From assembly GCA_963720545.1 (NCBI GenBank), contig OY970399.1, positions 1-64,000 on the forward strand: 64,000 nucleotides of DNA, given 5' to 3'. Shown piece after piece: positions 13,930 to 44,885 of this stretch. A program made the position numbers and the translations under genes. The notes under the pieces were generated by a model. It saw only the letters and a list, made by a program, of their open reading frames with translations, made no database searches and had not been told where the DNA came from. Origin of the DNA: an uncultured Acidobacteriota bacterium. GTDB taxonomy: Bacteria > Acidobacteriota > Vicinamibacteria > Fen-336. The stretch's first letter is position 1; every line of letters starts with the position of its first letter.

Positions 13930-14859
13930 ATGGGCAAGCCGCGCATCTTCCTTGGATCGTCGGGAAAACAGGCGAAGTTGCTGAACGCGCTGACGCGGGG
14001 TCTCGAAGACATCGCCCAAGTCGATCCGTGGACGACGTCGTTCCATCCGGGGACGAGCACGCTGGAGCGCCTGGTCGAACTGACGCGCGAGGTCGACTTC
14101 GCCGCGTTCGTGTTCGCGAGCGACGACTGGACATCGACCGGGACGGCCGAGGCGCCGGCGGAAGCAGGACAGGCGTCGCCGCGCGACAACGTGGTGTTCG
14201 AGGCGGGCCTCTTTGGCGGTGTCCTCGGCATGCGGCGTACTTTTATCCTGCACGCGAATGGCGCCAAGCTGCCCAGCGATCTTCTTGGCCTCACCTGCGT
14301 TCGCTACAACGACACGACGGCCGCCGAAGTCAGAGCCCTCAACCAGAAGCTGCGGGACGCGATCGAGAACGAATGCCGCGCCACGAGCATCGAGGGCCTA
14401 TGGTGGCAGTACTCGCTGTCGCAGCGCGGTCCGAACGAGCCGTCCGCCGTCAGCCTGCTGCGCATCTCGCGCGACAAGACCGGAGCGCTGGAGGTGAATG
14501 GCCGTTCCTGGCAGGAAGACGGCAGGCTCTCCGCGAGATATTGGAGTGAGGCGTCGAGAGAACGGAAGGAGCCGGCGGGCATCTTCTATTATTGGCACGG
14601 GGAACGTCCGCTCGACGAGGACGCGCCGCAACTCGAAGGTACCGGAGAGATCCGGCTCGAGTCGGCCGACCGCGGCACCGGCTTTTGGACAACCCGCGCC
14701 GACAAACAGCCGACGTTGAACGCGCGGACGTCTGGTATCTACGTGCGCGCCGATCCGGCGGACCTCGGCATTCTCGATGGTAGCGACGATCGACAGCGCG
14801 CGCAGCTACTTGCGGACCGCCTGAAGCAGTGGAAGTCGATCACGAATCCAGGCTCGTAG
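13930..14859 (+). CDS. TIR-like (Cap12/PycTIR-type) domain fused to a C-terminal beta-barrel (Cap15-like)
   Basis: RIFLGSS, VDFAAFVFASDD, PRDNVVFEAGLF with catalytic Glu, KLPSDLLGL; beta-rich C-terminus IEGLWWQY...IFYYWHGE.P...EGTGEI...GTGFWTT. Confidence 0.85.
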   Translation: MGKPRIFLGSSGKQAKLLNALTRGLEDIAQVDPWTTSFHPGTSTLERLVELTREVDFAAFVFASDDWTSTGTAEAPAEAGQASPRDNVVFEAGLFGGVLGMRRTFILHANGAKLPSDLLGLTCVRYNDTTAAEVRALNQKLRDAIENECRATSIEGLWWQYSLSQRGPNEPSAVSLLRISRDKTGALEVNGRSWQEDGRLSARYWSEASRERKEPAGIFYYWHGERPLDEDAPQLEGTGEIRLESADRGTGFWTTRADKQPTLNARTSGIYVRADPADLGILDGSDDRQRAQLLADRLKQWKSITNPGS

Positions 14860-14872
14860 GACAAGGGAGTGA

Positions 14873-16012
14873 ATGATGGCGGAAGCAACGAGCATGGGTG
14901 GTAATCCCATCAAAGTGGGAGTCATTGCGGAGCAGACCGGTCCGCTCTCGTTCGTCGGCCTGGCCAACGCCAACGTTGCGCGGATGGTCATCGACGACAT
15001 CAACGCCAAGGGCGGGCTGCTGGGACGGCAGCTGAAGCTGTACCTCGAGGACGGCGCCACCGACGACGCTGCAGCGGCGGCTGCGGCGACCAAGCTGGTC
15101 CAGCAGGACCGAGTCGACGTCATCTTCGGCGGCATCTACAGTTCCACGCGCCAGGCCATCAAGGAGCCAGCGGTGGCGAAGGGCCGGACGCTTTACATCT
15201 ACCCGGAGCAGTACGAAGGCCAGGAAGCGGATCCGCTCATCTTCTGCACCGGTCCGGTACCGGCACAGCAGCTCGATCCGTTCATCCCGTGGTTGATGCA
15301 GACGACCGGCGCGAAGCGCTTCTACCTGCCGTCGGCCGATTACATCTGGCCGCACGTCATGAACCAAAGGGTCCGCGAACTCGTCACGGTAGCCGGAGGC
15401 GCCGTCGTCGGCGAGGAGTACCACCCGATGGACCACATGGACTACGCCGCCACCGTCGAACGCATCGTGGCAAGCGGCGCCGACGTGGTTTTCAACACCA
15501 TCGTGCCGCCCGGCGTCGGGCCGTTCTTCGAGGCGCTGCACAACGCGGGCTTCCAGGCGCGCGGCGGGCAACTGGTGTGCACTTACTTCGACGAGAACTT
15601 CCTGAACATGGTGCCAGCCACCCATGTGGAGGGCCTCTACGGCTGCCTCGATTACTACCAGGCGATCAGCGATCCCTTCAGCCAGAAGCTCCTCGCGCAA
15701 TACGACTCGCTCTATTCCGGACACGCCAAGTTCACTGGCGGCGGCGCCTGCTCCGGCCTTTACCGTGGCCTGCGATTGTGGGCGGCGGCGGTGACCGAGG
15801 CAGGCTCGACGACGCAGGCCGATGTCGTGAAGGCGCTCGACCACGCTCGCATCGGCGAGGGCCCCGGCGGACCAGCCGAGATGGTGCCGGGCGAGCACCA
15901 TGTGCGCATGCACATGTACATCGCGCAGGCGCGCAACGGCCGCTTCGAGGTGGTCAAGAGCCTTGGCGCGATCGACCCCAAGGAACAGCAAGTCGCGCCA
16001 ACGTCGCGATAG
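14873..16012 (+). CDS. AmiC/UrtA-family ligand-binding protein lacking a signal peptide
   Basis: PIKVGVI, INAKGGLLGRQL, GGIYSSTRQA, YPEQYEGQE, SADYIWP, ADVVFNTIV; no h-region, lipobox or Tat motif. Confidence 0.88.
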   Translation: MMAEATSMGGNPIKVGVIAEQTGPLSFVGLANANVARMVIDDINAKGGLLGRQLKLYLEDGATDDAAAAAAATKLVQQDRVDVIFGGIYSSTRQAIKEPAVAKGRTLYIYPEQYEGQEADPLIFCTGPVPAQQLDPFIPWLMQTTGAKRFYLPSADYIWPHVMNQRVRELVTVAGGAVVGEEYHPMDHMDYAATVERIVASGADVVFNTIVPPGVGPFFEALHNAGFQARGGQLVCTYFDENFLNMVPATHVEGLYGCLDYYQAISDPFSQKLLAQYDSLYSGHAKFTGGGACSGLYRGLRLWAAAVTEAGSTTQADVVKALDHARIGEGPGGPAEMVPGEHHVRMHMYIAQARNGRFEVVKSLGAIDPKEQQVAPTSR

Positions 16013-17913: not shown

Positions 17914-20889
17914 ATGGCGTCTGGCCCTGCCGACGTCCGCGACGCCGATTCCGCCGCGCCGACGCCGATCTGGGTACCGGCGCCCGGAGCCGTCTCGTCG
18001 TCCCAACTGACAGCTTTCATCGCGCATTGCGAGCGGGTGACGGGCCGCGCCATCGGCACCAGCGGCGAGCTCTACCGGCTCTCGGTGGTTGAGCCGCAGC
18101 GGTTCTGGGCGCTCTTCCTCGAATGGGCCGGGCTGCTCGTCGAGGGCGATCGCCTTCCGGTGCTTGCGGGCGGGAACGTGGAACATACCCGATTCTTCCC
18201 GGGCCTGCGCCTGAGCTACGCGGAGAACTTGCTCGCGTGTGCGGCCAGCGGCGATCTCGACCGGATTGCGGTCACTTCGATCGGGGCCAATGGGACGCGC
18301 GAGCGGCTCACCCGTGGCGAACTCCGGCGGCTCGTCCGCGGGTTCGCCGCCGCCCTTCGATCGCTCGGCGTCGCTCCCGGCGACCACGTGGTCAGCGTGC
18401 TGCGGAACGACGTCGGGTCGGTGGTGGCGGCGCTGGGTGTTGCGGCCGCCGGCGCGAGCTTTTCGAGTGCCGCACCCGAGATGGGCGTGCACAACGTGCT
18501 CAGCCGCTTCGCCCAGCTCGATCCCCTGGTGCTGGTGGTGAGTTCGATCGGGCAACCCCAGTTCGAGGCGGGCCGGCTGCGCGAGCTGGCGGCCGGGCTG
18601 CCGACGCTCCGCGCGATCGTCGTCATGGACGACAGCCCGCTCCCAACGGATCTGCCGGTGTCCGTCCACCGGGCCTCTGGACCAGCCGTCGACGAGGGGG
18701 AGTGGGAGCGATATCCGTTCAATCATCCGCTGCTCGTGCTGTTCTCCTCGGGGACGACGGGCCGGCCGAAGTGCATCGTCCATGGCGCGGGCGGGACTCT
18801 CCTCGAGCACGTGAAGGAGCACGTTCTGCACGGCGACCTGCGGGCGGGCGAAAAGCTCTTCTTCCACACCTCGACCGCCTGGATGATGTGGAACTGGCAA
18901 CTCTCGGCGCTTGCCTGCGGCGCCGAGATCCTGCTCTACCACGGCCCGGTGATCGAACCCGAGACGCTGTGGCGCATCGCGGCCGAGGAGCGGGTAAGCG
19001 TGTTCGGCACGACTCCCGCGTACCTGCGCATGTGCCAGCGCGCGGGCTACTCGCCGCGGCGCCGGCTCGACCTCAGATCTCTGCGCTCGGTCATGTCCAC
19101 GGGCGCGATCCTCTACGATGATCAATACGAGTGGTTCGCCGCCGACGTCGGGGCGATTCCGCTCCAGTCGATCTCCGGCGGCACCGAGATCGTCGGCTGC
19201 TTCGTGCTCGGCAACCCGAACCTTCCCGTCTATGCCGGCGAGGCACAGTGCCGGAGCTTTGGCCTGGACGTCCGCGCGATCGGGTCGGACGAGTCGGGCA
19301 TCGGCGACCTCGTTTGCGCGTCTCCGTTTCCATCTCGCCCACTGGGCTTCCACGACGACCCGAAGGGCGAGCGGTTCCACGCCGCGTACTTCGAGCAACA
19401 CCCGGACGTCTGGACGCACGGCGACCTGATCACGATCACCGAGCGCGGCACCGCGCGGATACACGGCCGCTCGGACGGGACGATGAACGTGCGTGGGATC
19501 CGGATTGGCCCCGCGGAGGTCTACCGCGTGCTCGGATCATTCGCCGAGATCGCCGAAGCGATGGTTGTTGAACAGCCGACGCCGGGGAGCGCGGAGGACT
19601 CGCGGATGGTGCTGCTGGTGGTGACCGCTCCCGGCCACACCCTCGACCTGCCGCTCCGCGCGCGCATCCGCACGGCGCTCGCCCGCAAGGCATCGTCGGC
19701 CCATGTGCCGGCCATGATCGTGGACGTGCCCGAGCTTCCTGTGACGCACAGCGGGAAGTACTCCGAAGTGGCGGCCACCGCGGTGCTTCGCGGCCGCGAG
19801 CCCGCGAACATCGGCGCGCTTCGAAATCCGGACTGCCTCCGCGCCATCGCCGATCGGGTCGCCGTCCACGACGTGGCCGCAGCTCAGGCGCTCGCCGCAG
19901 GCCCGTCTGGCGACGTCGAGCAGGAGGTGTCGCGCATCTGGGAGGCTGTGCTGGGCGACGCGGCCGGGCCCGACGACGACTTCTTCGAGTGCGGCGGCAC
20001 CTCGCTCATGACCGCGCCGCTCTTTCAGCTAATCGCCGACCGCCTCGGGAGGCGGCTCCCGCTCTCGACGATCCTGCACGCACCGACCATCTCCTCGCTG
20101 GCCGCACTGCTTCGCGACAACTCCGACCAGGGCTGGGGGACGCTCGAGCTGCTGCGCGCCGGAAACTCGCAGCGACCGCTGTTCGCCGCACCGGGATTGT
20201 TCGGCGACCCGCTGCTGCTGCGGCCGCTGGCCGAGAGCATCGACGATGACCGAGCCGTGTACGGCCTGCGGGGGCGCGGCCTGATGGGAGGCGAGCTCCC
20301 TTTGGCGACGGTCGAGGAGATGGCGGCGGCGCAGATCGACGGCATCCGAAAGCTCCAGCCGCACGGGCCATATGCCCTGCTTGGCTATTCGCTCGGCGGC
20401 CCGGTCGTCGTCGAGATCGCGCGACGCTTGCTCGAGGAGGGCGAGCAGGTCGAGTTCCTTGGCATCGTGGACACCCACTCCAGCTGGGCCTGCCTTCCGG
20501 CGCGCGAGGTTGCCGCGCAGGCGCTTCAGGTGCCTATGAGATGGCCGAGGGCCTTCACCGCCGACCTGCGCCGAACGCTGCAACGCGGCCTGCAGCGGAT
20601 CGGTGTCGTGTCCGGCGCGACCAGCGATCCGCACACCGCGCGCGTCCAGGCGGCCGGCCAGCGGGCGCTGGACGCGTACTGCCCACGCACGTATCCCGGC
20701 TCGATCGTGTACTTCCGCGCCGCGATCCCCAGCCTGCTACAAGCCGACGCAACGGCGGTCTGGCGGCGCGCCGCGGCAGAGCTCCTGGTAGAGACCGTCC
20801 CCGGCCATCACGACGAACTCGTCGGCCTGCACGCGCCCGACCTCGCCCGCGTTGTGAGCACGCACCTGCGAGCGCGACCGGCGGCGTAG
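17914..20889 (+). CDS. Acetoacetate-CoA-ligase-like adenylation domain fused to a carrier protein and thioesterase (A-T-TE)
   Basis: LSYAENLL, FSSGTTGRPKCIVH, WMMWNW, SISGGTE, GRSDGTMNVRGIRIG, SGK; T domain FFECGGTSL; TE GPYALLGYSLGG and VPGHH. Confidence 0.9.
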   Translation: MASGPADVRDADSAAPTPIWVPAPGAVSSSQLTAFIAHCERVTGRAIGTSGELYRLSVVEPQRFWALFLEWAGLLVEGDRLPVLAGGNVEHTRFFPGLRLSYAENLLACAASGDLDRIAVTSIGANGTRERLTRGELRRLVRGFAAALRSLGVAPGDHVVSVLRNDVGSVVAALGVAAAGASFSSAAPEMGVHNVLSRFAQLDPLVLVVSSIGQPQFEAGRLRELAAGLPTLRAIVVMDDSPLPTDLPVSVHRASGPAVDEGEWERYPFNHPLLVLFSSGTTGRPKCIVHGAGGTLLEHVKEHVLHGDLRAGEKLFFHTSTAWMMWNWQLSALACGAEILLYHGPVIEPETLWRIAAEERVSVFGTTPAYLRMCQRAGYSPRRRLDLRSLRSVMSTGAILYDDQYEWFAADVGAIPLQSISGGTEIVGCFVLGNPNLPVYAGEAQCRSFGLDVRAIGSDESGIGDLVCASPFPSRPLGFHDDPKGERFHAAYFEQHPDVWTHGDLITITERGTARIHGRSDGTMNVRGIRIGPAEVYRVLGSFAEIAEAMVVEQPTPGSAEDSRMVLLVVTAPGHTLDLPLRARIRTALARKASSAHVPAMIVDVPELPVTHSGKYSEVAATAVLRGREPANIGALRNPDCLRAIADRVAVHDVAAAQALAAGPSGDVEQEVSRIWEAVLGDAAGPDDDFFECGGTSLMTAPLFQLIADRLGRRLPLSTILHAPTISSLAALLRDNSDQGWGTLELLRAGNSQRPLFAAPGLFGDPLLLRPLAESIDDDRAVYGLRGRGLMGGELPLATVEEMAAAQIDGIRKLQPHGPYALLGYSLGGPVVVEIARRLLEEGEQVEFLGIVDTHSSWACLPAREVAAQALQVPMRWPRAFTADLRRTLQRGLQRIGVVSGATSDPHTARVQAAGQRALDAYCPRTYPGSIVYFRAAIPSLLQADATAVWRRAAAELLVETVPGHHDELVGLHAPDLARVVSTHLRARPAA

Positions 20890-26858: not shown

Positions 26859-26934
26859 TGGCGACCCCGACGGGATTTGAACCCGCGATCTTCGGCTTGA
26901 AAGGCCAACGTGCTAACCGCTGCACCACGGGGTC
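26859..26934 (-). tRNA. tRNA-Glu(UUC)
   Basis: GACCCCG...TTGGC-CTTTCAA-GCCGA...GGTTCAAATCC...CGGGGTCGCCA cloverleaf with encoded CCA. Confidence 0.97.

Positions 26935-31605: not shown

Positions 31606-31609
<4 letters not shown>
30479..31609 (+). CDS. AI-2E (UPF0118/PerM) family transporter
   Basis: [48 protein letters not shown]. Confidence 0.88.
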
Positions 31610-32551
<942 letters not shown>

Positions 32552-32562
<11 letters not shown>

Positions 32563-33991
32563 GGTGTTGTCCGAACCCCCTGAAGAGAGTGAGGATGAGG
32601 ATCTTCATGTCCAGCACCAGCGACCAGTTCTCGATGTAGTAGAGGTCGTACTCGATGCGCTTCTCGATCGAGGTGTTGCCGCGCCACCCGTGCACCTGCG
32701 CCCAGCCGGTGATGCCCGTCTTCACACGGTGGCGCAGCATGTACTGTGGAATCTTCTCCTTGAACTCCTGGACGAAGGGTGGCCGCTCCGGGCGCGGGCC
32801 CACCAGACTCATGTCACCGAGCACCACGTTGATGAGCTGCGGGAACTCGTCCACGTTGTACTTGCGGAGCCACGCGCCGATCGTGGTGCGGCGCGGGTCG
32901 TCCGCGGTCGCCCACACCGGCCCGGTTTCCTTCTCGGCGTCGTGGCTCATCGAGCGGAATTTCCACATCATGAAGGTCTTGCCGTCGAGGCTCATGCGCT
33001 CCTGGCGGAAGAACACCGGGCCCGGCCCGCCCTTGAGGCGGATGAGCACGGCGATCACCGCGAACGGAACCGCCAGCAGCAGCAGCAGGGCGGTGCCGAG
33101 CACGATGTCCATGGCCCGTTTCGCAAGGCTGTACCACCCGCGCAGCGGCACCTCGTTGAGCGCCACGATCGGCACGCCGTCTAGGTCCTCGAGGCTCGCC
33201 CGCAGCGTCGCGTATTGCAGCAGGTCGGGCACCACGCGCACGTCCACGTACTCGTTCGTCACCAGGCGGATGAGGTCGAGGAGCCGGCCGTGGTCCTCGA
33301 GCGGCAGGGCGACGTAGATCTGGTCGACACCATGCTCCGCGATGACGCGCGAGGTGTCGGCGAAGCCGCCGAGGATCGGCAGGCTGGTGCCTGTGTGCGG
33401 TGTGTCGTCCACGAAACCGACGACACGGTAGCCGAGGTCGCGGTGCGCCACCAGCTTGTCGGCCACCGTGCGGCCCAGCTCGCCGGCACCGGCCACCAGC
33501 ACCCGCGTGGTGTTGTAGCCCGCCGCCCACAGCCGCTCGAGGTAACGCCGCAGCGAGTAGCGGCCGAGCGTCAGGGCCGCGACGTCGAGAACGAAGAACA
33601 GGACGAACACGGCCTGGCTGTACTCCCAGAGCGGCGCCACATCCGGGCCGAAGCGGTGATAGACGCGCACGTACAACGTGAAGGCAAGGAGCGCCGCGGC
33701 GCCGAGCGCCACGCTGAAAACGATCGCGAACAGCTCGTCGACGCGGCTGCGCGTGCGCTTGATCTGGTAGAGGCCGTGGAAATAGAGGATGGCGGGCCAC
33801 GCCAGCACGATCACGGGCACCAGCAGCAGGTAGCGCGACAGCTCCGGGACGCCCTTGGTGACCGGCAGCAAGGCCGTGATGAAGGGTGCCTCGAAGCGCA
33901 GGATGTAGGCGAGGAGCCACGCGAGCACCGTGGACACGAGGTCCACGACCACGAAGATGGTGACGATGCGGCTCGTCTGAAACCTCAGCAT
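32552..33991 (-). CDS. wcaJ: Undecaprenyl-phosphate glucose phosphotransferase
   Basis: N-terminal TMs, CoA-binding-like domain, [39 protein letters not shown]. Confidence 0.9.
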
Positions 33992-35088
33992 TTGGAGTCG
34001 GCGAACGCCCGGAAACGGGCCTCGAACACGGGCACGTCGAACTGCTCGGCCCGCGCGCGTAACGCCACCGGGTCGAATTGTAGCCGGTCCAGCCGTTCCA
34101 CCGTTTGCCGCAGCGCCTGCGGGGTTGCCTCGCGAAACACCAGGCCGGTCTCGTCCTCGACCACACTCTCCGGGCCGCCGCCCTCGCCAAACACCACCGC
34201 AGGGCGAGCGCAGGCCATCGCCTCCAGCGGCACGATGCCGAAGTCTTCGACGCTCGCCATGATGACGGCGCGGCAGCCGCGGTAAGCGTCGCGCAGGCGC
34301 ACGTCGTCGAGATAGCCGGTGAACTCCGCCTCGCTCGGCGCCATGCGCCGCAGGCGCGCTTCCTCGGCGGGCGTGCCCTTGCCGACAATCTTCAGCCTGC
34401 GGCCGGTGCCGCGGTACGCCTCGAGGATGAGCTCGGTGCGCTTGTACGGCACGAGTGCCGTGACCACCAGGTCGTAGTCGCCAGGTGGCGAGCCGTCCGG
34501 CGTGAAGAATGCGGCGTCGACCGGCGGCTCGATCACCTCAGCCGTGCGCTGGTAGTAGCGCTGGATGCGCGCCGCAACGTACTTGCTGTTGGCGACGAAA
34601 TGGTGCACGCGGTTCGCGGTCGCCGCGTCCCAGCGACGCAGCGCCGCCGCCACCGGCCGCGCCACCGCGCGCGTCAGTGGTCCAGCACGTTCCGAGCCGA
34701 AGTAGTCGTCGAAGCGGTCCCACACGTAGCGCATCGGCGTGTGGCAATAGCAGATGTGCACGGCGCCCGGCGCCACCTTGACGCTCTTGACGACGCAGTG
34801 CGAGCTGGAGATGACGAGGCGGTAGGGCGACATGTCCATGGTCGCGACCGCGGCGGGGAAGAGCGGCAGGTAGCTGCGGTAGCGGCTCGCGGCCTTGGGC
34901 AGGTGCTGCACGAAGGTGGTGCGGATGTCGCGCGCCTCGAGGTCGGGCGTGAGCGCGCCCGGCACCCGCAGCAGTGTGTGGATCGGCGCCGCGGGGTAGA
35001 GGCGCGCGAGCGAGCGCAGCACCTTCTCGCCACCGCGCATGCCGGTGAGCCAGTCGTGGACCAGGGCGGCGGCGCGAGGTTCGCTCAC
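33985..35088 (-). CDS. Glycosyltransferase family 4
   Basis: HDWLTGMRGGEKV, CYCHTPMRY.WD, EDFGIVPLEAMA. Confidence 0.92.
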   Translation of the reverse strand: MSEPRAAALVHDWLTGMRGGEKVLRSLARLYPAAPIHTLLRVPGALTPDLEARDIRTTFVQHLPKAASRYRSYLPLFPAAVATMDMSPYRLVISSSHCVVKSVKVAPGAVHICYCHTPMRYVWDRFDDYFGSERAGPLTRAVARPVAAALRRWDAATANRVHHFVANSKYVAARIQRYYQRTAEVIEPPVDAAFFTPDGSPPGDYDLVVTALVPYKRTELILEAYRGTGRRLKIVGKGTPAEEARLRRMAPSEAEFTGYLDDVRLRDAYRGCRAVIMASVEDFGIVPLEAMACARPAVVFGEGGGPESVVEDETGLVFREATPQALRQTVERLDRLQFDPVALRARAEQFDVPVFEARFRAFADSKC

Positions 35089-35128
35089 GCCGCCTGTTCT
35101 AGCCTATGTGCCGCTGCGGCCGTGAACC

Positions 35129-38100
35129 CTAGCGGCCGAACAGGTAGCGGACGCCGAGCTGCACTTCGCGGCCCGAGAAGAACTCGGTCGGCTTGCCGAA
35201 GTCGGCGCCCGAGACGTTGGTCACGTTGAGGACGTTGTCGGTGTTGAAGACGTTGAAGGCTTCGGCGAGCACCGAGAGGGAGTTGCGCCCGGCGACCTTG
35301 AACACCTTCTCGAGGCGCAGGTCGAGGTTGCGGAACGCCTTGGTGCGGAAGTTGTTGCGCGGCACGGCGGTGTCGCGCTGGTCCACCAGGCCGTCGCCGT
35401 CGAGGTCCTGGATGCCGCGCGGGTTGAAGGCGAGACCGCTGCGCCACACGAAGATGCCGGAGAGGTTGATGTCGAGCGGCAGCGTGACCACTCCGCTCGC
35501 GACCAGGTTGTGCGGCACCGACTGGTTCGACGGGCCGAAGTCTTTCTCGGGGTTGTTGTTGTCGCTGAAGGTCGAGCCGACGTTGCCCGAGAGCAGGTTG
35601 TCCTTGGCGCTCGAGTAGGTGTACGACACGAGGAACGCGTACCGCTTGCTGTAGCGCTTCTGCAGCGCCACGGCGACGCCGTCGTATTCGATGCGGCCTT
35701 CGTACCCCACCTGGTCGATGCGGGGGCCGCCGTCCGTCGTCTTGCCGAAGTTGGGATCGCCCTGCTGCGCCGGGAACAGGTTGACGATGCGCCGCGTCAA
35801 CAGGTCCTTGCTGCGGCGGTGCACGTAGGTGGCCGAGATGCCGATGTCGTCGGTCAGCTTCTGGTCGATGCCCACCGTGAAGGCGTTGGTCACCGGGGTC
35901 TTGTCCTCGCTGTAGCGCGAGATCGAGCGGCTGCCGCTCAACGGCCCGCGCGGGAAGAACGAGAGCACGCGGTTGCCGAGGATCGAGCCGCCGGGGACGT
36001 CGAAGAACTCGAAGTCGGTGCCGGCGTAGGTGGTCTCGAGCCGCTGAATCGCCTGCGCAGGCGTCAGGCCGCTGAGGCTCTGGATGTTGTCGGCGGTGAC
36101 CACCGGCGGCGCGCCGGGGTTCGGCACCGCGATGCCGAGCAGCTTGTAGAGCGCCAACGGATCGTTGCGCAGGTCGCTCGCGAACCTGGCGTAGAGCGGG
36201 TTCTCCGCGGGCGAGCGCAGACCGCCGCCGATGGGGAAGCCGGAGGTGATGACGAGGTCGATGAGCGTGTCGGTGTAGTCCGAGCCGAGCCGCGGCAGCG
36301 CCACGTCGAACGCCGACGTCGAGAAGATGCCGCCCTTCTCGGGCACCGTGGCGGCCGCGGTCAGCAGGTTGCGGTCGTTGAAGCGGCCCCAGTTCGCCTT
36401 CAGGATGGTGCTCTGCTTGCCGCTCAGGTCATAGGCGAAGCCGAGGCGCGGACCGAAGTTGTCGGTGTCGCCGCTGAACAGGCTGGAGCGGTCGTAGCGC
36501 AGGCCGCCGTTCACGGTGAGGCGGTCGTTGACCTTGAGGCGGTCCTGCACGAAACCGCCCCAGGTCTTGTCCTTGATGTCCACGTCGAGCGTCTGGCCCG
36601 GGGGCGGGAACGCGAGGAAGAAGCGCGCCGCCGACTGCTGGAAGCCGAGGCGCTGGAAGAGCGCGGCATTGTCGGCGGCCGCGGTCGGCGAGAGGAAGGC
36701 GCCGGAGTACTCGACGTCGTTGACGACGCTGTCGGAGCCGTCCACCGCCACGCTGCTCCAGTCCCAGCCGGCCTTCAGCTCGTGGTTGCCGCCGAAGCCG
36801 CTCTTCACCCACGAGAGGTTCTGCGCCAGCTCGAAGTTGCGGGTGTTGCGCACGTTGGTACCGCCGAACGGCGCGCCCGTCTGCAGGAAGCCGCTCGCGA
36901 GCAGCAGCAGCAGCGGCTCGGCGCGCTCGGTGCGGTCGAGGTTCTGGCCGACCTTGCCCTTGATGAAGGTGGCCGAGCTCTCGAGGAACACCTGCGGCGA
37001 GAGGATGGCGGTGTGGCGCAGGATCCCGCTGTTGGCCTTGCGGGTGGCGTCGGCCGCCGCGCTCGGCAGTGCGACGGTGCCGGACACCGGCGAGCTGATG
37101 GCGCCCGAGCGGTCCTCGTCGCTGCGGTTCAGCTGCAGGAACAGGCGGTTGTTCGAGTTGAGGTTGTAGTCGAACTTCAGCATGCCGTTGAAGCGGTCGG
37201 TCTTGGGGGCGATGCCGAAGTCCTCGGCGCCGCCAGGCGTTGCGATGCCGCTCTTGACGAAGTCGGGGATGGTCGCCTGGTTGATGTTGACGCCGCGCTT
37301 TTCGTCGAGCAGCTCGAAGGTGCCGAAGAAGAACGCCTTGTCCTTCTTGATGGGGCCGCCGAGGCTGGCGCCGTACTGGTAGCGGCTCAGCTCGGGCGGA
37401 TCCTGGTCGGGCACGTTCGACGAGTCGAACGAGTCGTTGCGCGCGAACAGGAACGCGCTGCCCTGGAACAGGTTGCTGCCGGAGCGCGTGACGATGTTGG
37501 CGACGCCGCCCTGGGCGCGGCCGAACTGCGCCTCGTAGCCGGTGGTGATGACCTCGAATTCCTGGATCGAGTCCTGGGTGTAGCGAATGAACGGGCCGCC
37601 GTTCAGGGGATCGTTGTTGTTGCCGCCGTCCACGAGGTAGGAGGTTGCCGAGGCGCGCTCGCCGAACACCGACACCTGGTCGAGGGCGCCGCCCTGCTGG
37701 TCGCCGCTCACCGGCGTCGCGCCGGGCACGAGGCGGACGAGGTCCACGAACTCGCGGCCGTTCAGTGGCAGCGAGTCGATGGTCTGCTGGGTGATGCGGT
37801 TCGCGACGGCGGAGCGCTCGACGTCGATGACCGGCGCCGACGACACCACGTCCACCGCTTCCTCGACGCCCGCCGGCGACAGGCCGAACTCGACGCGCGT
37901 GTCGGCATCGATCGCCACTTCGACGCCGCGCTTCGTCTGGCGGCCGAAGCCGGCACTCTCGGCGCTCACTTCATAGCGGCCGGGCGGCAGCGAGGCGAAG
38001 CGGTAGGTGCCTTCGTCGCTGGTCGTGGCCTTGCGGCCGTCCGTGGGCAGGTTGCCGCCGCGCACCGTCACGCTGGCGCCGCTCAGCACCGCACCGCTCG

Positions 38101-38206
38101 AGTCGCGCACCGTGCCGGCGATGGTGCCGGTGATCTGCGCGCTCGCGCCAGGGATGAAACTCAGGGACAGGGCCACTGCGGCCAGGGCGGTCAACAATCG
38201 TTGCAT
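35129..38206 (-). CDS. TonB-dependent receptor, Oar-like, with carboxypeptidase-regulatory N-domain
   Basis: Signal peptide, GTVRDSSGAVL.GA.V, LPLNGR.F..L, TRSGSN.FQG, NFGPRLGFAYD, C-terminal REVQLGVRYLF. Confidence 0.92.
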   Translation of the reverse strand: MQRLLTALAAVALSLSFIPGASAQITGTIAGTVRDSSGAVLSGASVTVRGGNLPTDGRKATTSDEGTYRFASLPPGRYEVSAESAGFGRQTKRGVEVAIDADTRVEFGLSPAGVEEAVDVVSSAPVIDVERSAVANRITQQTIDSLPLNGREFVDLVRLVPGATPVSGDQQGGALDQVSVFGERASATSYLVDGGNNNDPLNGGPFIRYTQDSIQEFEVITTGYEAQFGRAQGGVANIVTRSGSNLFQGSAFLFARNDSFDSSNVPDQDPPELSRYQYGASLGGPIKKDKAFFFGTFELLDEKRGVNINQATIPDFVKSGIATPGGAEDFGIAPKTDRFNGMLKFDYNLNSNNRLFLQLNRSDEDRSGAISSPVSGTVALPSAAADATRKANSGILRHTAILSPQVFLESSATFIKGKVGQNLDRTERAEPLLLLLASGFLQTGAPFGGTNVRNTRNFELAQNLSWVKSGFGGNHELKAGWDWSSVAVDGSDSVVNDVEYSGAFLSPTAAADNAALFQRLGFQQSAARFFLAFPPPGQTLDVDIKDKTWGGFVQDRLKVNDRLTVNGGLRYDRSSLFSGDTDNFGPRLGFAYDLSGKQSTILKANWGRFNDRNLLTAAATVPEKGGIFSTSAFDVALPRLGSDYTDTLIDLVITSGFPIGGGLRSPAENPLYARFASDLRNDPLALYKLLGIAVPNPGAPPVVTADNIQSLSGLTPAQAIQRLETTYAGTDFEFFDVPGGSILGNRVLSFFPRGPLSGSRSISRYSEDKTPVTNAFTVGIDQKLTDDIGISATYVHRRSKDLLTRRIVNLFPAQQGDPNFGKTTDGGPRIDQVGYEGRIEYDGVAVALQKRYSKRYAFLVSYTYSSAKDNLLSGNVGSTFSDNNNPEKDFGPSNQSVPHNLVASGVVTLPLDINLSGIFVWRSGLAFNPRGIQDLDGDGLVDQRDTAVPRNNFRTKAFRNLDLRLEKVFKVAGRNSLSVLAEAFNVFNTDNVLNVTNVSGADFGKPTEFFSGREVQLGVRYLFGR

Positions 38207-38286
38207 TGGACAGGCGCCTCCGTTGGGGCGGATTCTCCACTGCGCATGACGAACGTGCAACGGCAATGCGTCAGCGGTGCTCCAAA

Positions 38287-39186
38287 CTATTGTTCGAGGA
38301 ACTGGAGCAAGTCGCGCGCGAAGCGCTGCGGCTCTTCCCAGTGGAGCGCATGGCCGGTGTCCGGGTAGACGATGAGGCGCGAGCCGGCGATGCCGGCGAG
38401 CAACCCGTCCTGGTCGGCGCGCGTCAACATCGCGTCCTTGTCGCCCCACACCAGGAGCGTCTTCGCCTTGATGCGCGCGAGCCGCGGACCGGGCTCGCTG
38501 CCGCCGAAGTCTCGGCCCAGCTCGTTCCAGACCCGTGCCGGCACACGCAGCACCTCGCCGATCATCGTCTCGAGGAACAGCGGCGGCAGCGGCTTCCAGG
38601 CGGTGCCGGCCTGGAAGTCGCGCGCGAACGCCTCGGGCACCGGGTCCTTGATGCTCGCGAACATCTGGCTCAACTCGGACGGCGTCTCCTCCTTGCGCGG
38701 GCCGCCGGGTCCGGAACCGACCAGCACCAGCCGCGTGATCCGCCGGCCGGCATCGGCGTCGTTCTGCGCCACCTCCTGCGCCACGAAGCTGCCGAGCGAG
38801 TGGCCGACCAGGCACACGTCCTTCATGTCCTGTTCGGCGATGAGGTCGCTGATGTCCTGCGCCATGTCCTTGCGGCTGAACCCGGTCGCCGGCTTGTCGC
38901 TCAGGCCATGCCCGCGCAAGGTGACGGCATAGACGCGGTACTTCGCCGGCAGCGACGGCAGCACCAGGTCCCACGAATGCCACGAGTCACCGACGCCGTG
39001 CAGCAGCACCACCTTCGGCCCGGCGGGATCGCCCTGGGTGACGACGTGCAGGGTGATGCCCGACTTCAGCTTCACCATGGACGCCGTTTGCGGAGCGGCG
39101 GCGTCCGCCGGCGCCGCGGCCGCCACGATCAGGGCCAATGCGGCTGCGAGAAAAACTCTGGTCTTGCTTGGCTTTGGCGTTGTCAT
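38287..39186 (-). CDS. Secreted alpha/beta hydrolase
   Basis: Signal peptide, LLHG, LRGHGLS, GHSLGS, WGDKD, GHALHWEEP. Confidence 0.88.
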   Translation of the reverse strand: MTTPKPSKTRVFLAAALALIVAAAAPADAAAPQTASMVKLKSGITLHVVTQGDPAGPKVVLLHGVGDSWHSWDLVLPSLPAKYRVYAVTLRGHGLSDKPATGFSRKDMAQDISDLIAEQDMKDVCLVGHSLGSFVAQEVAQNDADAGRRITRLVLVGSGPGGPRKEETPSELSQMFASIKDPVPEAFARDFQAGTAWKPLPPLFLETMIGEVLRVPARVWNELGRDFGGSEPGPRLARIKAKTLLVWGDKDAMLTRADQDGLLAGIAGSRLIVYPDTGHALHWEEPQRFARDLLQFLEQ

Positions 39187-40334
39187 GCGACGGTCTGGTT
39201 CTCCTTGCTCATTGGCAGTCCCAGCGCCTGCTGGTAGCTGCGGCGAATTCCCGTGACCGAGCGCTCCCAGCTGAAGTGCCGGGCCCTCGCGAATCCGCGC
39301 TCCACGAGCCGTGCGCGCAAGCCCGCGTCCTCGAGCACCGACGCGACGCCGTTCGCGATGCTTTCGATGCTCTCCGGCTCGATCAGCACCGCGGCGTCGC
39401 CCACCACTTCGGGCAGCGACGAGGTGTTGGAGGTGACGACCGGCGTGCCGCACGCCATCGCCTCGAGCGGCGGCAGGCCGAAGCCCTCGTAGAGCGACGG
39501 GAACGCGAACACGTCGGCGAGACGGTAGAGCGCCGCCAATGTCGGGTCGGGGACGAAGCCGAAGAAGCGCACGTCGCGGCGGATGCCCTCCGTCTCCACC
39601 AGGCGGCGCAGCGACACGAAGCCGCCGGCCTCCTCGCCGATGACGATGAGCTTGAGGTCGTCCATGCCCGCGCGCTTTTTGACTAGCGCGAATGCCGACA
39701 CCAGCCGCGCCAGGTTCTTGTGCGGCTTGATGTTGCCGACGAACAGCACGAAGCGGCCGTGGATCTGGTAGCGCTCGCGCACCTGCGCGAGTTCCTCGTC
39801 GCCCGGCGCCACCAGCAGCGACTCGTCGATGGCGTTCGCGATCACCGAGATGCGGCCGGGGTCGGTCTTTGGAAAGAAGTGCAGGATGTCGTTGCGCGAC
39901 GCCTCGGAGACGGTGAGGATGCGCCGCGCCGAACGCGTCGCATGGCCGATCATGTAGCGGGCGTAGGTATGCGCGACCCGGTTCGGCAGGTACTGCGGGA
40001 AGCGCAGGTGGATACAGTCGTGGATCGTCACCACCGACGGCGCCGGGCAGCGCAGCGGCAGGACGTAGTGCGGCGAGTGGAAGAGCTCGGCGCCCAGCTT
40101 GCGCAGGTGGCGCGGGATGGTGAGCTGCTCCTCGATGCTGTAGCCGCGCGCGCTCTCGACGATCGGCACGAAGTTCTCGCCGAGCACCCGGATTTCCGCC
40201 TCCTCGGGCGGCTCGCACAGGATGAAGTAGGTGGTGGCGTTGTCGATGCGCGCGAGATGGCGCACCAGGTTGCGCACGTACGTGCCGATTCCGTAATCGC
40301 GCCATTTGCGCGCGTCGATCGCGATGCGGGCCAC
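39183..40334 (-). CDS. Glycosyltransferase family 4 (MtfB-like)
   Basis: IAIDAR...[34 protein letters not shown]. Confidence 0.92.
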
Positions 40335-40356
40335 GGGCGATTCTAGATCGTGCCGC

Positions 40357-41244
40357 CTAGGCCCTGGGCAGCGGACCGCCGAGCGCCAGCCGCCGCAGCT
40401 GCGGGGAGCGCTCGCGAAAGCCGCGCAGCAGCAGGTGGACCCGCAGCGCGAGGCTCGCGATGAGGCCGTTGTGCTTGGCGTAATACCGCAGGTGCGCCTG
40501 GTGATAGGCGAGCCGGGCGAACTCCGGCGCGTGTGCCACGCTGCGGCCGCCGTGGTGGGTGACGTGCGCCTCGGGCACGAACGCGAGCCGGAAGCCGGCA
40601 CGCCGCAGCCGCAGGCACAGGTCGGCATCTTCCTCATAAAGGAAGAAGCGCTCGTCGAAGCCGCCGAGCTGACGAACCGCGGCCGTGCGCACCATGAGGC
40701 AGGACCCCGACAGCCAGTCGGGCTCGAACCAGTTCGCGGTCTCCGCCTCGAGCGCCGCGAGCGCCACCGGGTCGCGGCGGCGCAGGTCGCGCATCCGCTG
40801 CCGCTGGCGCCGCTCGGCAAGCGGTGTCAGGTCCGGGCCGAACGAGAGCTGGATCGTGCCGTCGGTCTCGATCGTCTTCGGGCCGACGGCGGCCACGTCG
40901 GGCCGCTTCACGAGCACGTCGATGAGCGCCGAGAAGGCACCGGGCGCCGCTTCCGTGTCGGGGTTGAGGAACAGGACATACGGGACGTCGCCGACTGCCT
41001 CGAGCCCCTGGTTGCACGCGGCAGCAAAGCCGAGGTTCGCGTCGTTGCTCAGCACAACAGCTTCGGGCCACGACTGGCGGGCGAGCTCCACCGTATCGTC
41101 GCCGCTGGCGTTATCGACGATCACGACGCGCAGGCCGATCGACGCTTCGGTTTCGAGCGCGCGCAGGCACGCCTCGATCACCGGCGAGGAGTGGTGGGTG
41201 ACGACCACGACGCCGAGCGTCTTCGTCGGGCTGATTGTCGTCAT
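40357..41244 (-). CDS. Glycosyltransferase family 2 (rhamnosyltransferase-like)
   Basis: VDNASGD, NLGFAAACN, FLNPD, GGFDERFFLYEEDADLC. Confidence 0.92.
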   Translation of the reverse strand: MTTISPTKTLGVVVVTHHSSPVIEACLRALETEASIGLRVVIVDNASGDDTVELARQSWPEAVVLSNDANLGFAAACNQGLEAVGDVPYVLFLNPDTEAAPGAFSALIDVLVKRPDVAAVGPKTIETDGTIQLSFGPDLTPLAERRQRQRMRDLRRRDPVALAALEAETANWFEPDWLSGSCLMVRTAAVRQLGGFDERFFLYEEDADLCLRLRRAGFRLAFVPEAHVTHHGGRSVAHAPEFARLAYHQAHLRYYAKHNGLIASLALRVHLLLRGFRERSPQLRRLALGGPLPRA

Positions 41245-42335
41245 GGCTGCCCCGGCCCGGCGGCGTCGCGCAAGGCGGCAAGCGTCTGCGCCGCGCAGGT
41301 ATCCCATGAGAACGACCGCGCCAGCTCAGGGCCGCGCAGCGCGAGAGACGCGCGCAGCTCGGCGTCGTCGAGCACTCTCGCGAGTGTTTCCGCCAGGCGC
41401 TGCGGCTGCGACGCATCGGCGACGAGCGCGGCCGAGGCGAAGAGGTCGGTGAGCGGGCGATCCTGGGAGACGACCAGCGGAAGGCCTGCCGCCAGCGCCT
41501 CGAGGGCCGGCAGGCCGAAGCCCTCATAGCGCGACAGGTAGATGGCGGCGGTTGCCGTCGCCAGCAGCGACTCGCGGCCCCCGTCGTCGATGAAGCCGTC
41601 GAACCGCACGGCGTCCTCGATGCCGAGCGCGCGCGCCTGCGCTTCGCCGTCCCAGCGCGGGTGGGTGCGGTTGTCGCCGACGACGTGCAGGCGGAAGTCG
41701 CGGCCCTGACGCCGCAACAGCGCGCAGGCGGCGAGGAGCTCCGGCATGCGCCGCCGGTTGAACAAGCTGCCAACGCTGAGGAGCACCGGAGGCCCGGCCT
41801 GCGGCGGGGGCTCGCGGTGCTTTGCCACCGCTTCGGCTGCGGGTGCGATCACGCGCGTCTTCGCCGCCGCTTTGGGAAAGCGGCGCGCGATCTCCTCCTT
41901 CATGAACTGAGACAGCGTCAGCACCAGCGTCGAGGCGCGGATGCTCGCGCCCACGAGAGTTCGGCGGCGCAGCCCCTCGCGCCACGTGAAGTCGTCGGGC
42001 ACCGCGAAGAAAGACAGGTCGTGGACCGCCGTGACGCGCGGCAGCTTCGCAAAGACGGGACAGGAGAAAGCCGGCGAGAAGAACACGTCGAGCCCGGCCG
42101 TGCGCAGCGCCCGGGGAAGCCGCACCTGCTCGAACCAGGTGCCGCGGCGTGCGGGCAGCGAGACGACGCTCGCGCCGCGCGCGTGCCATGGGGCGAGGTC
42201 GGCGGCGGGCGCGTTCGTGAACAGGGTCAGCTGCAGTTCGCGATCGGCGCTCCATCGCGACAAGAGCGCCGCCAGATAGCGGCCAGTGCCCGTGGGCCGC
42301 GGGCCGAGTTCGCGCGCGTCGATGCCGATGCGCAA
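41241..42335 (-). CDS. Glycosyltransferase family 4
   Basis: IGIDAREL...TGTGRY, VHDLSF, SRYEGFGLPALEA. Confidence 0.9.
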   Translation of the reverse strand: MRIGIDARELGPRPTGTGRYLAALLSRWSADRELQLTLFTNAPAADLAPWHARGASVVSLPARRGTWFEQVRLPRALRTAGLDVFFSPAFSCPVFAKLPRVTAVHDLSFFAVPDDFTWREGLRRRTLVGASIRASTLVLTLSQFMKEEIARRFPKAAAKTRVIAPAAEAVAKHREPPPQAGPPVLLSVGSLFNRRRMPELLAACALLRRQGRDFRLHVVGDNRTHPRWDGEAQARALGIEDAVRFDGFIDDGGRESLLATATAAIYLSRYEGFGLPALEALAAGLPLVVSQDRPLTDLFASAALVADASQPQRLAETLARVLDDAELRASLALRGPELARSFSWDTCAAQTLAALRDAAGPGQP

Positions 42336-42351
42336 GGCTATCGGCCCAGCG

Positions 42352-43470
42352 TCAGCGGCCTGCGACCCGCCTGTAAAAGGCGAGGGTCTGCGCGGCGGCG
42401 ATGTCCCAATCGAACGCGCGGCTGCGCGCGAGGCCGGCTTCGCGCATCTGCGCAGCGAGCGTGCGGTCGTTGAGGATGCGCTCGATGCCGCGCGCAATCG
42501 TGGACACATCCAGCGGGTTCACGAGCACCGCGGCGCCGCCCGCCACCTCCTCGAGCGCCGAGCCGGCGGAGCAGACGACCGGCAGCCCCGCGGCCATCGC
42601 CTCGGCCACAGGCAGGCCGAACCCCTCCTCGAACGACGGCAGCACCAGGGCGGCGGACGCGGCCATCAGGGCGCGGATCTCGCGCGTCTCGAGATAGCCG
42701 GTGGCATGGATGCGGGGCGAAGCGATGACGCCACCCGAGGCCCAGTGGCTGCCGGGCCCGACCAGGATGAGCGGCGGCACCTTGGTGCCGCGATGCGCGA
42801 GCCCCATGTACGCGATCGACAGGTTCACGAGGTTCTTGCGCTTCTCTTCGCTGCCGACGTAAAGGAGGGCGCCACGCGGCAGGCTGTGGCGGCGCAGCAC
42901 TCGCTCCACTTCCTCCGGTGTCGCCGGCTCGCGGTAGGCGGGATCGACGCCGTTCGGGATCACCGCGATTTTCTCGGCGGGCACCGACAGCAACAAGCGC
43001 GTCTCGGCCGCGGTGTATTCGGAGGGGCAGATGATGCCGTCCGCGCGGCGCGCGTGCTCGCGCACCAGCGGCGCATAGTCGCGGCGGATCTCGGCGTCGG
43101 TGAGGTCCGGGTGCTTGAAGAAGAACAGGTCGTGGATGGTGATGATGTGCTTCGCGCGGCGCCCGGGAACGATGAGCGGGTGCGGCGAGTGGATGAGGTC
43201 GAGCGAGGCGCCCACCAGCCGGTCGAGGCGCGGCCGGCCGAACCGGTTCCAGGCGTAGTTCAGCGCCTTCACCGGCAGCTGGCGATCCACCACCTTGACG
43301 TTCGGCGGCCAGTTGGTCGAGCCCCGGTAGCGGTCCTTGTAGGACGCCGTGAAATAGAAGAAATGGTCGCTCGGACTCTGCAGCGGCAGGCGCTCGGCAA
43401 GGGCCATGACATAGGCCCCGACCCCCGTCGGCTTCGACAGCGCGGGCCGCAGGTCGAGGGCGATGTTCAT
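42352..43470 (-). CDS. Glycosyltransferase family 4
   Basis: PTGVGAY, ITIHDL, RKNL, PSFEEGFGLPVAEAMA. Confidence 0.9.
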   Translation of the reverse strand: MNIALDLRPALSKPTGVGAYVMALAERLPLQSPSDHFFYFTASYKDRYRGSTNWPPNVKVVDRQLPVKALNYAWNRFGRPRLDRLVGASLDLIHSPHPLIVPGRRAKHIITIHDLFFFKHPDLTDAEIRRDYAPLVREHARRADGIICPSEYTAAETRLLLSVPAEKIAVIPNGVDPAYREPATPEEVERVLRRHSLPRGALLYVGSEEKRKNLVNLSIAYMGLAHRGTKVPPLILVGPGSHWASGGVIASPRIHATGYLETREIRALMAASAALVLPSFEEGFGLPVAEAMAAGLPVVCSAGSALEEVAGGAAVLVNPLDVSTIARGIERILNDRTLAAQMREAGLARSRAFDWDIAAAQTLAFYRRVAGR

Positions 43471-43583
43471 GACGGCGCTGATGTTACCGCACGAGCGAAA
43501 ACCGGCCTGAGCCACGCGCCCGGTTCACGGACGCAGCCGCCGGACGGGTAAAATCGGCGCCTTCCAATCCCTCGGGAGGGTGC

Positions 43584-44885
43584 TTGAGGCTGGCCGTCGT
43601 CGGTAGCGGATATGTCGGACTGGTGGTGGGCGCGTGCTTCGCCGACTACGGCAATGACGTGACCTGCGTCGACGCCGATGCGCGCAAGATCCAGGCGCTG
43701 CGCGGCGGCCAGATCCCGATCTACGAACCCGGCCTGCAGGAGATGGTGCAACGCAACGCCGCGGAGGATCGGCTCCAGTTCACCACCGACCTGGCCGAGG
43801 CGGTCCGCTCCGCCGAGATCATCTTCATCGCGGTGGGTACGCCGCAGGACGAAGACGGCTCCGCCGACCTGCGCCACGTGCTGGCGGTTGCCGACGGCAT
43901 CGGCAAGGCCATGAACGAGCCGAAGATCGTGATCAACAAGAGCACCGTCCCGGTGGGCACGGCGCGGCTCGTGAAGGAACGCATCCAGTCGCTCACCAGG
44001 CACACGGTATCGGTCGTCTCGAACCCGGAGTTCCTGAAGGAAGGCGCCGCCATCGACGACTTCATCCGGCCCGACCGGGTGGTGATCGGCACCGACGAGC
44101 CGAAGACGGAAGCGGTGCTGCGGCGGCTGTACGGCCCGTTCGTGCGCACCGGCCACCCGATCCTGGTCATGGATCCGCTCTCGGCCGAGCTCACCAAGTA
44201 CGCGGCGAACGCGATGCTCGCGACGCGCATTTCCTTCATGAACGACATCGCGGCGCTCTGCGACAAGGTCGGCGCCGACGTCGCGGCGGTGCGCAACGGC
44301 ATGGGCTCCGACTCGCGCATCGGGCCGTCGTTCCTGTTCCCGGGGGTCGGCTACGGCGGCTCGTGCTTCCCCAAGGACGTGAAGGCGCTCGTCAGCATGG
44401 GCCGCCACGCCGGCACCATGATGAACGTGGCGGAGGCGGTGGAAAAGACCAACGAGCGGCAGAAGCACGCGCTGGTGCCGCGGGTGGCAGCGCATTTCGG
44501 CGGCAGCCTGAAGGGGCGCCAGATTGCCGTGTGGGGCCTGGCGTTCAAGCCGAAGACGGACGACATGCGTGAGGCGCCCTCGCTGGTCACGATCGACGGC
44601 CTGCTGGCGCAGGGCGCGCAGGTCGCGGCGTACGACCCGAAGGCAATGGCCGCGGCGAAGACCCTGCTGGGCGAAAAGATTCGCCTCGTCGCGCGTGGCT
44701 TCGACGCGCTGCGGGGCGCCGACGCGCTGCTGGTGCTCACCGAGTGGCCGGAATTTCGCGAGCCCGATTTCGGGCGGATGAAGGAGTTGATGAAGACCCC
44801 TGTGATCTTCGACGGCCGCAACCTCTATAACCCCGCGGAGCTGCGCGGCCTTGGCTTCCACTACGAAGGGATGGGCCGGCGATGA
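43584..44885 (+). CDS. ugd: UDP-glucose 6-dehydrogenase
   Basis: GSGYVGL, PIYEPGL, KSTVPVGT, SNPEFLKEG, GYGGSCFPKD, GLAFKPKTDD. Confidence 0.95.
   Translation: MRLAVVGSGYVGLVVGACFADYGNDVTCVDADARKIQALRGGQIPIYEPGLQEMVQRNAAEDRLQFTTDLAEAVRSAEIIFIAVGTPQDEDGSADLRHVLAVADGIGKAMNEPKIVINKSTVPVGTARLVKERIQSLTRHTVSVVSNPEFLKEGAAIDDFIRPDRVVIGTDEPKTEAVLRRLYGPFVRTGHPILVMDPLSAELTKYAANAMLATRISFMNDIAALCDKVGADVAAVRNGMGSDSRIGPSFLFPGVGYGGSCFPKDVKALVSMGRHAGTMMNVAEAVEKTNERQKHALVPRVAAHFGGSLKGRQIAVWGLAFKPKTDDMREAPSLVTIDGLLAQGAQVAAYDPKAMAAAKTLLGEKIRLVARGFDALRGADALLVLTEWPEFREPDFGRMKELMKTPVIFDGRNLYNPAELRGLGFHYEGMGRR

Follow-up and report, generated by a model that had tools for sequence, protein, structure and literature searches.

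In a 64,000-nucleotide stretch of contig OY970399.1 from an uncultured Acidobacteriota bacterium (assembly GCA_963720545.1; hereafter the window), a single open reading frame (ORF; positions 17914-20889, plus strand) encodes a protein of 991 amino acids (aa), P0001, in which an adenylation (A) domain derived from acetoacetyl-CoA synthetase (AACS) is followed by a carrier (T) domain and a thioesterase (TE). P0001 is a real, intact member of a family that is widespread, mis-annotated, and apparently uncharacterised. It very probably loads an acid onto its own carrier rather than onto coenzyme A (CoA), since the carrier serine is invariant, CoA contacts are lost, the acid pocket is kept, and a phosphopantetheinyl transferase (PPTase) gene is co-located in relatives; an earlier note made from this DNA had likewise suggested that the enzyme may load a beta-keto or beta-hydroxy acid on its own carrier. 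We give an even chance to the further reading that P0001 is an acyl-donor module whose TE moves a short beta-oxy acid, such as acetoacetate or 3-hydroxybutyrate, to an outside acceptor, which in some lineages would be a surface glycan.

The ORF contains no internal stops, and all Pfam domains scored above cut-off: AMP-binding (aa 112-432), AMP-binding_C (539-615), PP-binding (671-733), and Thioesterase (754-971). The layout was delimited from the ORF, Pfam and TIGRFAM-type profiles, and an AlphaFold model built from 118 sequences (mean pLDDT 89.1); all features given here lie on the plus strand. Within the A domain (aa 15-650, 17956..19863), the P-loop SSGTTGRPK (aa 278-286, 18745-18771), the pocket motifs WMMWN (aa 323-327), STGAIL (aa 395-400), and SISGGTE (aa 419-425), and catalytic Lys615 (19756-19758) were recognized. 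An in-frame linker (19864..19923) leads into the T domain (aa 671-733, 19924..20112; PF00550, E 9e-11) with the predicted phosphopantetheine site Ser697 in FFECGGTSL (20002-20004), and the type I TE (aa 754-971, 20173..20826; PF00975, E 1e-21) carries the triad Ser826 (20389-20391, in GYSLGG), Asp853 (20470-20472), and His966 (20809-20811). The Pfam scan, Ser697, and the triad agree with the earlier note, which had read an A domain, a carrier, and a TE in one frame; its description as a stand-alone enzyme resembling nonribosomal peptide synthetases (NRPS) is supported by the carrier serine and the layout. With its stand-alone A domain, conserved-Ser carrier, and C-terminal catalytic domain, P0001 falls within the broad definition of NRPS-like A-T-X enzymes (PMC10510592, excerpt, section 1.4). 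Its T-TE part resembles EntF-type NRPS ends, and the nearest solved TEs are NRPS TEs.

The fusion itself is shared by the family. PF00501, PF00550, and PF00975 were present in 120/120 homologs among the matches listed, two Atlas clusters with the A-T-TE layout comprise 274 and 90 members, and a gene from a different genome (L001) was 85% identical at the nucleotide level over the whole gene, linker included, while its flanks were unrelated. Contigs of the public runs X1 (19658-20054) and X2 (19673-19978) crossed the A-T junction, for which the earlier note had proposed a check of read support, without differences, and the T-TE junction was bridged by a contig of X7 (20081-20432), a run of a separate study. 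X1 and X2 belong to one study, possibly the source study of the window, and this leaves some room for the A-T junction to be an assembly artefact, as the earlier note had feared, or a chance fusion. Both, and a frameshift as well, were rejected on the strength of the homologs, the L001 copy, and the junction contigs, and we regard such an origin as extremely improbable. Judged from dN/dS against L001 (A, 0.21; T, 0.17; TE, 0.31; 18-codon linker, 0.63), all three domains are under purifying selection. Across 193 fused family rows, corresponding to 82 clusters at 70% identity, Lys615 and the carrier serine were invariant (193/193 each), and the TE triad was conserved in nearly all rows (Ser826, 189/193; Asp853, 187/193; His966, 184/193).

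Profile scores place the A domain with AACS. TIGR01217 (acetoacetate-CoA ligase) scored 571 bits, above its cut-off of 520.9, and NF002937 remained narrowly below its cut-off (628 versus 639); stand-alone AACS profile scores were 760-890. The TIGR01733 score was 102, compared to a cut-off of 317. The best solved relative was S. lividans AACS (4wd1; residues 15-643, E 8e-124), with a TM-score of 0.89 by target and 37% identity. Two FastTree trees (69 and 66 A domains), computed on subsets of the collected sequences, united all carrier-linked forms in a single clade within AACS (support 0.968 and 1.0, respectively) that sits on its own long stem; the A-domain phylogeny suggested as a check thus shows the fused A domains nesting within AACS. 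The clade also includes five proteins of 644-664 aa that consist of the A domain alone; these could be fragments or act in trans. As a side observation, the two closest carrier genomes encode a ligase of a separate branch between acetyl-CoA synthetase (ACS) and AACS that keeps the basic CoA hairpin (L167, L168).

The CoA site of the clade differs from that of AACS. When the stand-alone AACS L087 was aligned to S. enterica ACS, its hairpin DAYLYAGK fell on ACS residues 187-194, and its Arg585 coincided with ACS Arg584 (numbering counted off the printed alignment); Arg191 and Arg584 of ACS are CoA-phosphate contacts (PMC10455477, excerpt). Where ACS has its Arg191/Arg194 hairpin and AACS the motif DGYxYGGK, P0001 has a degenerate hairpin (aa ∼209-221, 18538..18576), and according to the alignment and the family rows, Ala590 (19681..19683) replaces the arginine that binds the CoA 3'-phosphate (ACS Arg584). 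The hairpin motif was found in 14/14 stand-alone AACS versus 0/193 fused rows, and Arg or Lys at the Arg584-equivalent position in 14/14 versus 1/193. Among 50%-identity representatives, for which 133 of 148 rows spanned both sites, the hairpin Lys occurred in 6/35 long fused-type versus 73/86 short stand-alone-type sequences, and the Arg584 equivalent in 6/35 versus 74/86. AACS proper is moreover a single ligase domain of ∼650 aa. By CoA site and layout, P0001 is outside AACS proper, with which it shares A fold and ancestry, the open acid pocket, and the catalytic Lys.

This evidence bears on one alternative, an ordinary acetoacetate-CoA ligase whose T-TE tail is passive or vestigial or whose TE only hydrolyses or edits, which we consider quite improbable. 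Database annotation favors such a ligase, as does the failure to find a second AACS besides P0001 in the host genome, and ACS activity survives changes of Arg584 (PMC10455477, excerpt). It would, however, leave unexplained the invariant carrier serine, the purifying selection on T and TE, the loss of two CoA contacts, and the co-location with PPTase genes. An ordinary stand-alone AACS is also kept beside the fused gene in 12/30 carrier genomes, and the PF01144 CoA-transferase of the host could provide an alternative route to activated acetoacetate.

In contrast to the CoA site, the acid pocket is preserved: 192/193 fused rows have WMMWN and SISGG(T/S)(D/E), and the core pocket motifs are identical to those of the AACS nearest the clade. 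Fused proteins have Gly at the position of the Trp414 wall of ACS (wall as given in PMC11584562, excerpt), and P0001 lacks this tryptophan wall, as is characteristic of the AACS acid pocket. Glu425 is found in P0001 alone, with Asp elsewhere; ACS also has Glu there. Beside the pocket, the clade shows specific changes: position 399 has Ile/Val instead of Pro, position 322 has Ala instead of Gly, and Gln is near-invariant at 329 and 418. Such fixed differences, together with the AACS-family precedent VrtB (PMC13267043, excerpt), would fit a carrier loaded with another short polar acid, for instance malonate, malonamate, or 3-hydroxypropionate, irrespective of the subsequent action of the TE. Given that the core motifs equal those of AACS, including the AACS closest to the clade, and that TIGR01217 was passed, we regard a different acid as unlikely.

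Carrier proteins need priming, and a PPTase gene, whose assignment to the Sfp-type family was confirmed, adjoined the fused gene in 34/80 genome loci (32/80 by clustering) and in 25/80 metagenome loci, many of which are short; in the closest relatives (L001-L003), it lies directly upstream. Besides this PPTase, the 80 genome and 80 metagenome loci revealed no conserved tailoring, transport, or precursor genes, and the fused gene moves alone or with one other gene between unrelated genomic settings. Neither a PPTase nor a condensation (C) or ketosynthase (KS) gene was found near the window gene among the 11 flanking ORFs scanned (10.1-26.8 kb). The earlier note had stated that C, KS, and PPTase genes were missing nearby, which is accurate for this span; with regard to the PPTase, it applies to the window locus and not to the family, in which an Sfp-type PPTase is the usual neighbor, and the host has a copy in trans. 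This copy was located by the PPTase profile at C1:3220767-3221669 within a locus of NRPS and polyketide synthase (PKS) genes, and it presumably primes Ser697 in trans; a second, short PF01648 match (137-aa frame) lies at 2948967. A decayed PPTase upstream in the window was considered and is not supported (best local score of 36, reached by 18/500 shuffles; protein-level scores of 28-46). The host PPTase locus (G000:C1:3214000-3243000; L083, L084) comprises the PPTase, an NRPS, a PKS, and a second NRPS, and translations judged by eye suggest that the surrounding genes serve polysaccharide export or modification. Elsewhere in the host, a stand-alone 933-aa frame (G000:C1:1595331-1598129, minus strand) combines an A-like NRPS-type start, which is not AACS-type, with a TE.

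What the loaded acid is used for is suggested by the domains that follow the A-T pair. TE is the most frequent output domain, but the AACS-type A-T pair is also joined to tandem GNAT (L031, L053, L077). We found the tandem-GNAT domain in 40 proteins (P0122-P0161), most with an AACS-type A domain and six that are labelled as other ligases or score as such; the GNAT end has a predicted tandem-GNAT fold (pLDDT 90.9; best Z 14.2, root-mean-square deviation of ∼5 Å over ∼260 residues), and the GNAT forms are nested in the carrier-linked A clade (FastTree). A hexapeptide acyltransferase follows A-T in P0163 and P0172, the C-terminal part of the latter matching serine acetyltransferases, and precedes it in P0186 and P0197. 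A search of 401 genomes from the phylum to which G066 belongs found no hexapeptide-fused form like P0172; since our large genome searches scored 2-4 candidates per genome, this and the other not-found counts from them are floors. P0203 combines A-T with a TE and an SGNH end, and in P0121 (2084 aa), the AACS-type A-T is fused to a C-A-T-TE module. In the GNAT, hexapeptide, TE plus SGNH, and C-A-T-TE forms alike, the AACS-type pocket motifs are unchanged, and the hexapeptide protein P0172 is sister to the TE protein P0168 (support 1.0). GNAT, hexapeptide, and C domains pass acyl groups to a second substrate, so the A-T pair would act as an acyl-donor module, and since a TE can be replaced by a hexapeptide domain, we infer that the TE is most simply a transferase, too. 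The motifs of the second A domain of P0121 show a glycine-like specificity pattern; P0121 could make an acetyl-tetramic acid or an amino acid carrying an N-(beta-oxy-acyl) group. As judged from domain order and trees, the swapping of output domains on one AACS-derived A-T module, including the TE/hexapeptide sister pair, is new here.

Related fusions were noted outside this set. Tandem GNAT also occurs on fatty-acyl-type A-T proteins (P0141, P0147, P0148, P0151, P0153, P0154), L207 has two GNAT-like domains, and stand-alone-type AACS is joined in P0234 to a GT2 glycosyltransferase and in P0229 and P0241 to unassigned C-terminal domains. A basic TE lid (median net charge of +8 in 191 rows) was considered as a hint that the TE binds membranes or glycans and dropped, because the conventional terminal NRPS TE of P0121 is also at +5 (n = 1).

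The earlier note had instead proposed that the enzyme may release a dimer, lactone, pyrone, or oligoester; it would then be a self-contained synthase, with the TE condensing at least two beta-oxy units. The product would be a 3-hydroxybutyrate oligoester or cyclic oligomer, a beta-lactone, or a dimer of acetoacetate, on chemical grounds for instance a pyrone of the dehydroacetic acid type; no bacterial dehydroacetic acid pathway was found in the literature among the titles listed. A synthase of this kind would suit a gene that moves as a one- or two-gene unit with the PPTase as its sole conserved neighbor and that most commonly ends in a TE, and it has precedents in characterised A-T-TE enzymes that dimerise their substrate (PMC10316625, excerpt) and in oligomerising TEs such as Vlm TE (PMC10510592, excerpt). 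It accounts less well for one A-T clade with one pocket that also feeds GNAT, hexapeptide, and C domains for transfer to a second substrate, or for the sister relationship of P0168 and P0172, and self-condensation does not predict the glycan gene enrichment in Burkholderiales described below. We therefore hold the synthase to be rather doubtful, though the most serious of the alternatives.

For the acyl-donor module, the following sequence of steps can be envisaged. An Sfp-type PPTase, encoded next to the fused gene in many relatives and in trans in the host, would prime Ser697. The AACS-derived A domain would then adenylate a short beta-oxy acid, from the kept pocket likeliest acetoacetate or 3-hydroxybutyrate, which in the well-supported third step would go onto the enzyme's own pantetheine arm, bypassing CoA. 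Finally, the acyl group would be taken over by Ser826 and passed to an outside nucleophile, probably a hydroxyl, a step modelled on the sister proteins that end in GNAT, hexapeptide, or C domains. A building block of a surface glycan is the probable acceptor in several Burkholderiaceae lineages; in the host of the window, the neighboring genes give no hint. More tentatively, and on balance doubtful as a whole, the family might constitute unrecognised, mobile, ATP-driven, CoA-independent acylators that hand acetoacetyl or 3-hydroxybutyryl groups to swappable TE, tandem-GNAT, hexapeptide, or C outputs, with the TE as a trans-acylase.

The glycan acceptor was suggested by gene neighborhoods: glycosyltransferase-type genes were present in 18/54 Burkholderiales loci versus 4/40 evenly spaced background windows from three such genomes. 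The profiles were built from the host's own genes; those for Wzx and AT3 had no host members and gave no matches, so the loci were counted by the GT2, GT4, and sugar-transferase profiles. The Burkholderiales contexts vary and include Wzx/GT2, AT3-SGNH, GT87/UbiA, GT4, GumK, and a MurJ-like flippase.

Several observations weigh against transfer to an outside acceptor, against the glycan, or against the beta-oxy acid. An enzyme with a PPTase as its lone partner would fit a self-contained product equally well, and the TE of P0001 resembles an ordinary NRPS TE. Loss of Arg584 raised the CoA Km of S. enterica ACS only 7-8-fold (Reger et al., via PMC10455477, excerpt), so the fused enzymes may still use CoA, if less well. 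VrtB is reported to make malonamoyl-CoA (PMC13267043, excerpt), so the acid of P0001 is not necessarily acetoacetate. Glycosyltransferase genes were present in 2/26 non-Burkholderiales loci versus 5/40 host background windows and in 7/80 metagenome loci; the Burkholderiales loci are kin, 8/22 synteny groups being positive. No glycan gene lies within 8 kb of the window gene, the nearest sugar genes starting from 31.6 kb, and in the host genome (94.8% complete), neither PhaC nor a 3-hydroxybutyrate dehydrogenase above cut-off was found. Taking together the enrichment in Burkholderiales, the kinship of these loci, and the weak signal elsewhere, a glycan acceptor appears plausible in some lineages and is unsupported in the host. 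The host has three HMGL-like genes. Sugar genes of the window form a cluster at 31609-45871 (epimerase/dehydratase, WcaJ-type transferase, glycosyltransferases, and UDP-glucose dehydrogenase) that starts ∼11 kb downstream of the fused gene, beyond a tRNA at 26862.

Carriers of the fusion were found in Paraburkholderia, Caballeronia, Cupriavidus, Alphaproteobacteria, Solirubrobacterales, and Verrucomicrobia, and at least 33 of 296 scored Burkholderiaceae genomes contain it; five genomes in this search received no score. It was present in 0/40 host relatives, two of which have a stand-alone AACS. Searches of 400 further genomes from the host's phylum, where a stand-alone AACS was the sole match, and of 400 from the order of G067, a Methylobacterium carrier, did not find it (both floors). 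One row in several of the counts (L057, from G062) is flagged as unpublished, and none of the claims hinges on it. An ADOP permease suggests that the host is acidobacterial. The window gene lies among accessory genes upstream of the tRNA at 26862, a setting consistent with recent acquisition. Since carriers include culturable hosts, such as Cupriavidus necator, Paraburkholderia phymatum, and Caballeronia, the function is directly testable.

Among known systems, the A-T-TE quinone and furanone synthetases (AtrA, NPS3, CorA, HapA) share with P0001 the stand-alone A-T-TE layout without a C domain; RalA and EchA are named as their bacterial counterparts (PMC10316625, excerpt). However, AtrA-type A domains are NRPS-type, with Val at code position 1, and AtrA/RalA-type synthetases dimerise aromatic alpha-keto acids (PMC10316625, excerpt), whereas the A domain of P0001 is AACS-derived; this comparison was made by description and profile scores, as the trees held no RalA or AtrA sequence. 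The likeness to RalA, AtrA, and TdiA, which the earlier note had brought up, is one of layout only. Precedents for A-T pairs coupled to a transferase are Ebony (A-PCP-aaNAT) and AlmE and DltA, two carrier-based ligases of surface acylation, which share the proposed logic of activating a small acid, tethering it, and transferring it outward (PMC10510592, excerpt). Unlike P0001, with its AACS-type A domain and a TE as the putative transferase, they load amino acids via NRPS-type A domains; the tandem-GNAT end of sister proteins of P0001 adds to the parallel. By analogy, P0001 would work most like Ebony, AlmE, or DltA. As a further lead, NosI/NosJ/NosK of nosiheptide and the FrsA TE reportedly also combine a ligase, a carrier, and an alpha/beta-hydrolase acyltransferase, but are said to act on other substrates and within large clusters.

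No published description of an AACS-A-T-TE family was found in the literature searched, which did not cover subscription papers. Family proteins are labelled acetoacetate-CoA ligase in the database and are consequently counted as genes of ketone-body or polyhydroxybutyrate metabolism. If they do transfer acyl groups, a ligase of primary metabolism would have become a loading domain of the NRPS type whose outputs can be swapped, offering a ready beta-oxy-acyl loading module for engineering, a possible means of supplying small NRPS like P0121 with beta-oxy-acyl starters, and a possible source of 3-hydroxybutyryl or acetoacetyl marks on bacterial glycans and amines. The family would then also be a candidate to account for acyl marks on glycans, for example the 3-hydroxybutanoyl groups reported on rhizobial exopolysaccharides (PMC5748678, excerpt); since it was not found in the 400 genomes (floor) of the Methylobacterium carrier's order, it is an unlikely explanation of the rhizobial case.

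The 11 flanking ORFs (10.1-26.8 kb) encode unrelated proteins, among them thioredoxin-like, AlkZ-like, periplasmic binding, TIR, and metallo-beta-lactamase-fold proteins. A scan for promoters and terminators gave none above chance, four tRNAs were the only Rfam matches, and one RNA run contained 7% of the sequence words, which is neutral on expression. Upstream of the fused gene, a CAP12/Pycsar-type TIR domain protein is encoded at 13930-14859 (plus strand; PF10137, E 6e-22), with no cyclase seen adjacent, and is directly followed by a gene for an AmiC/UrtA-like binding protein (14873-16012).

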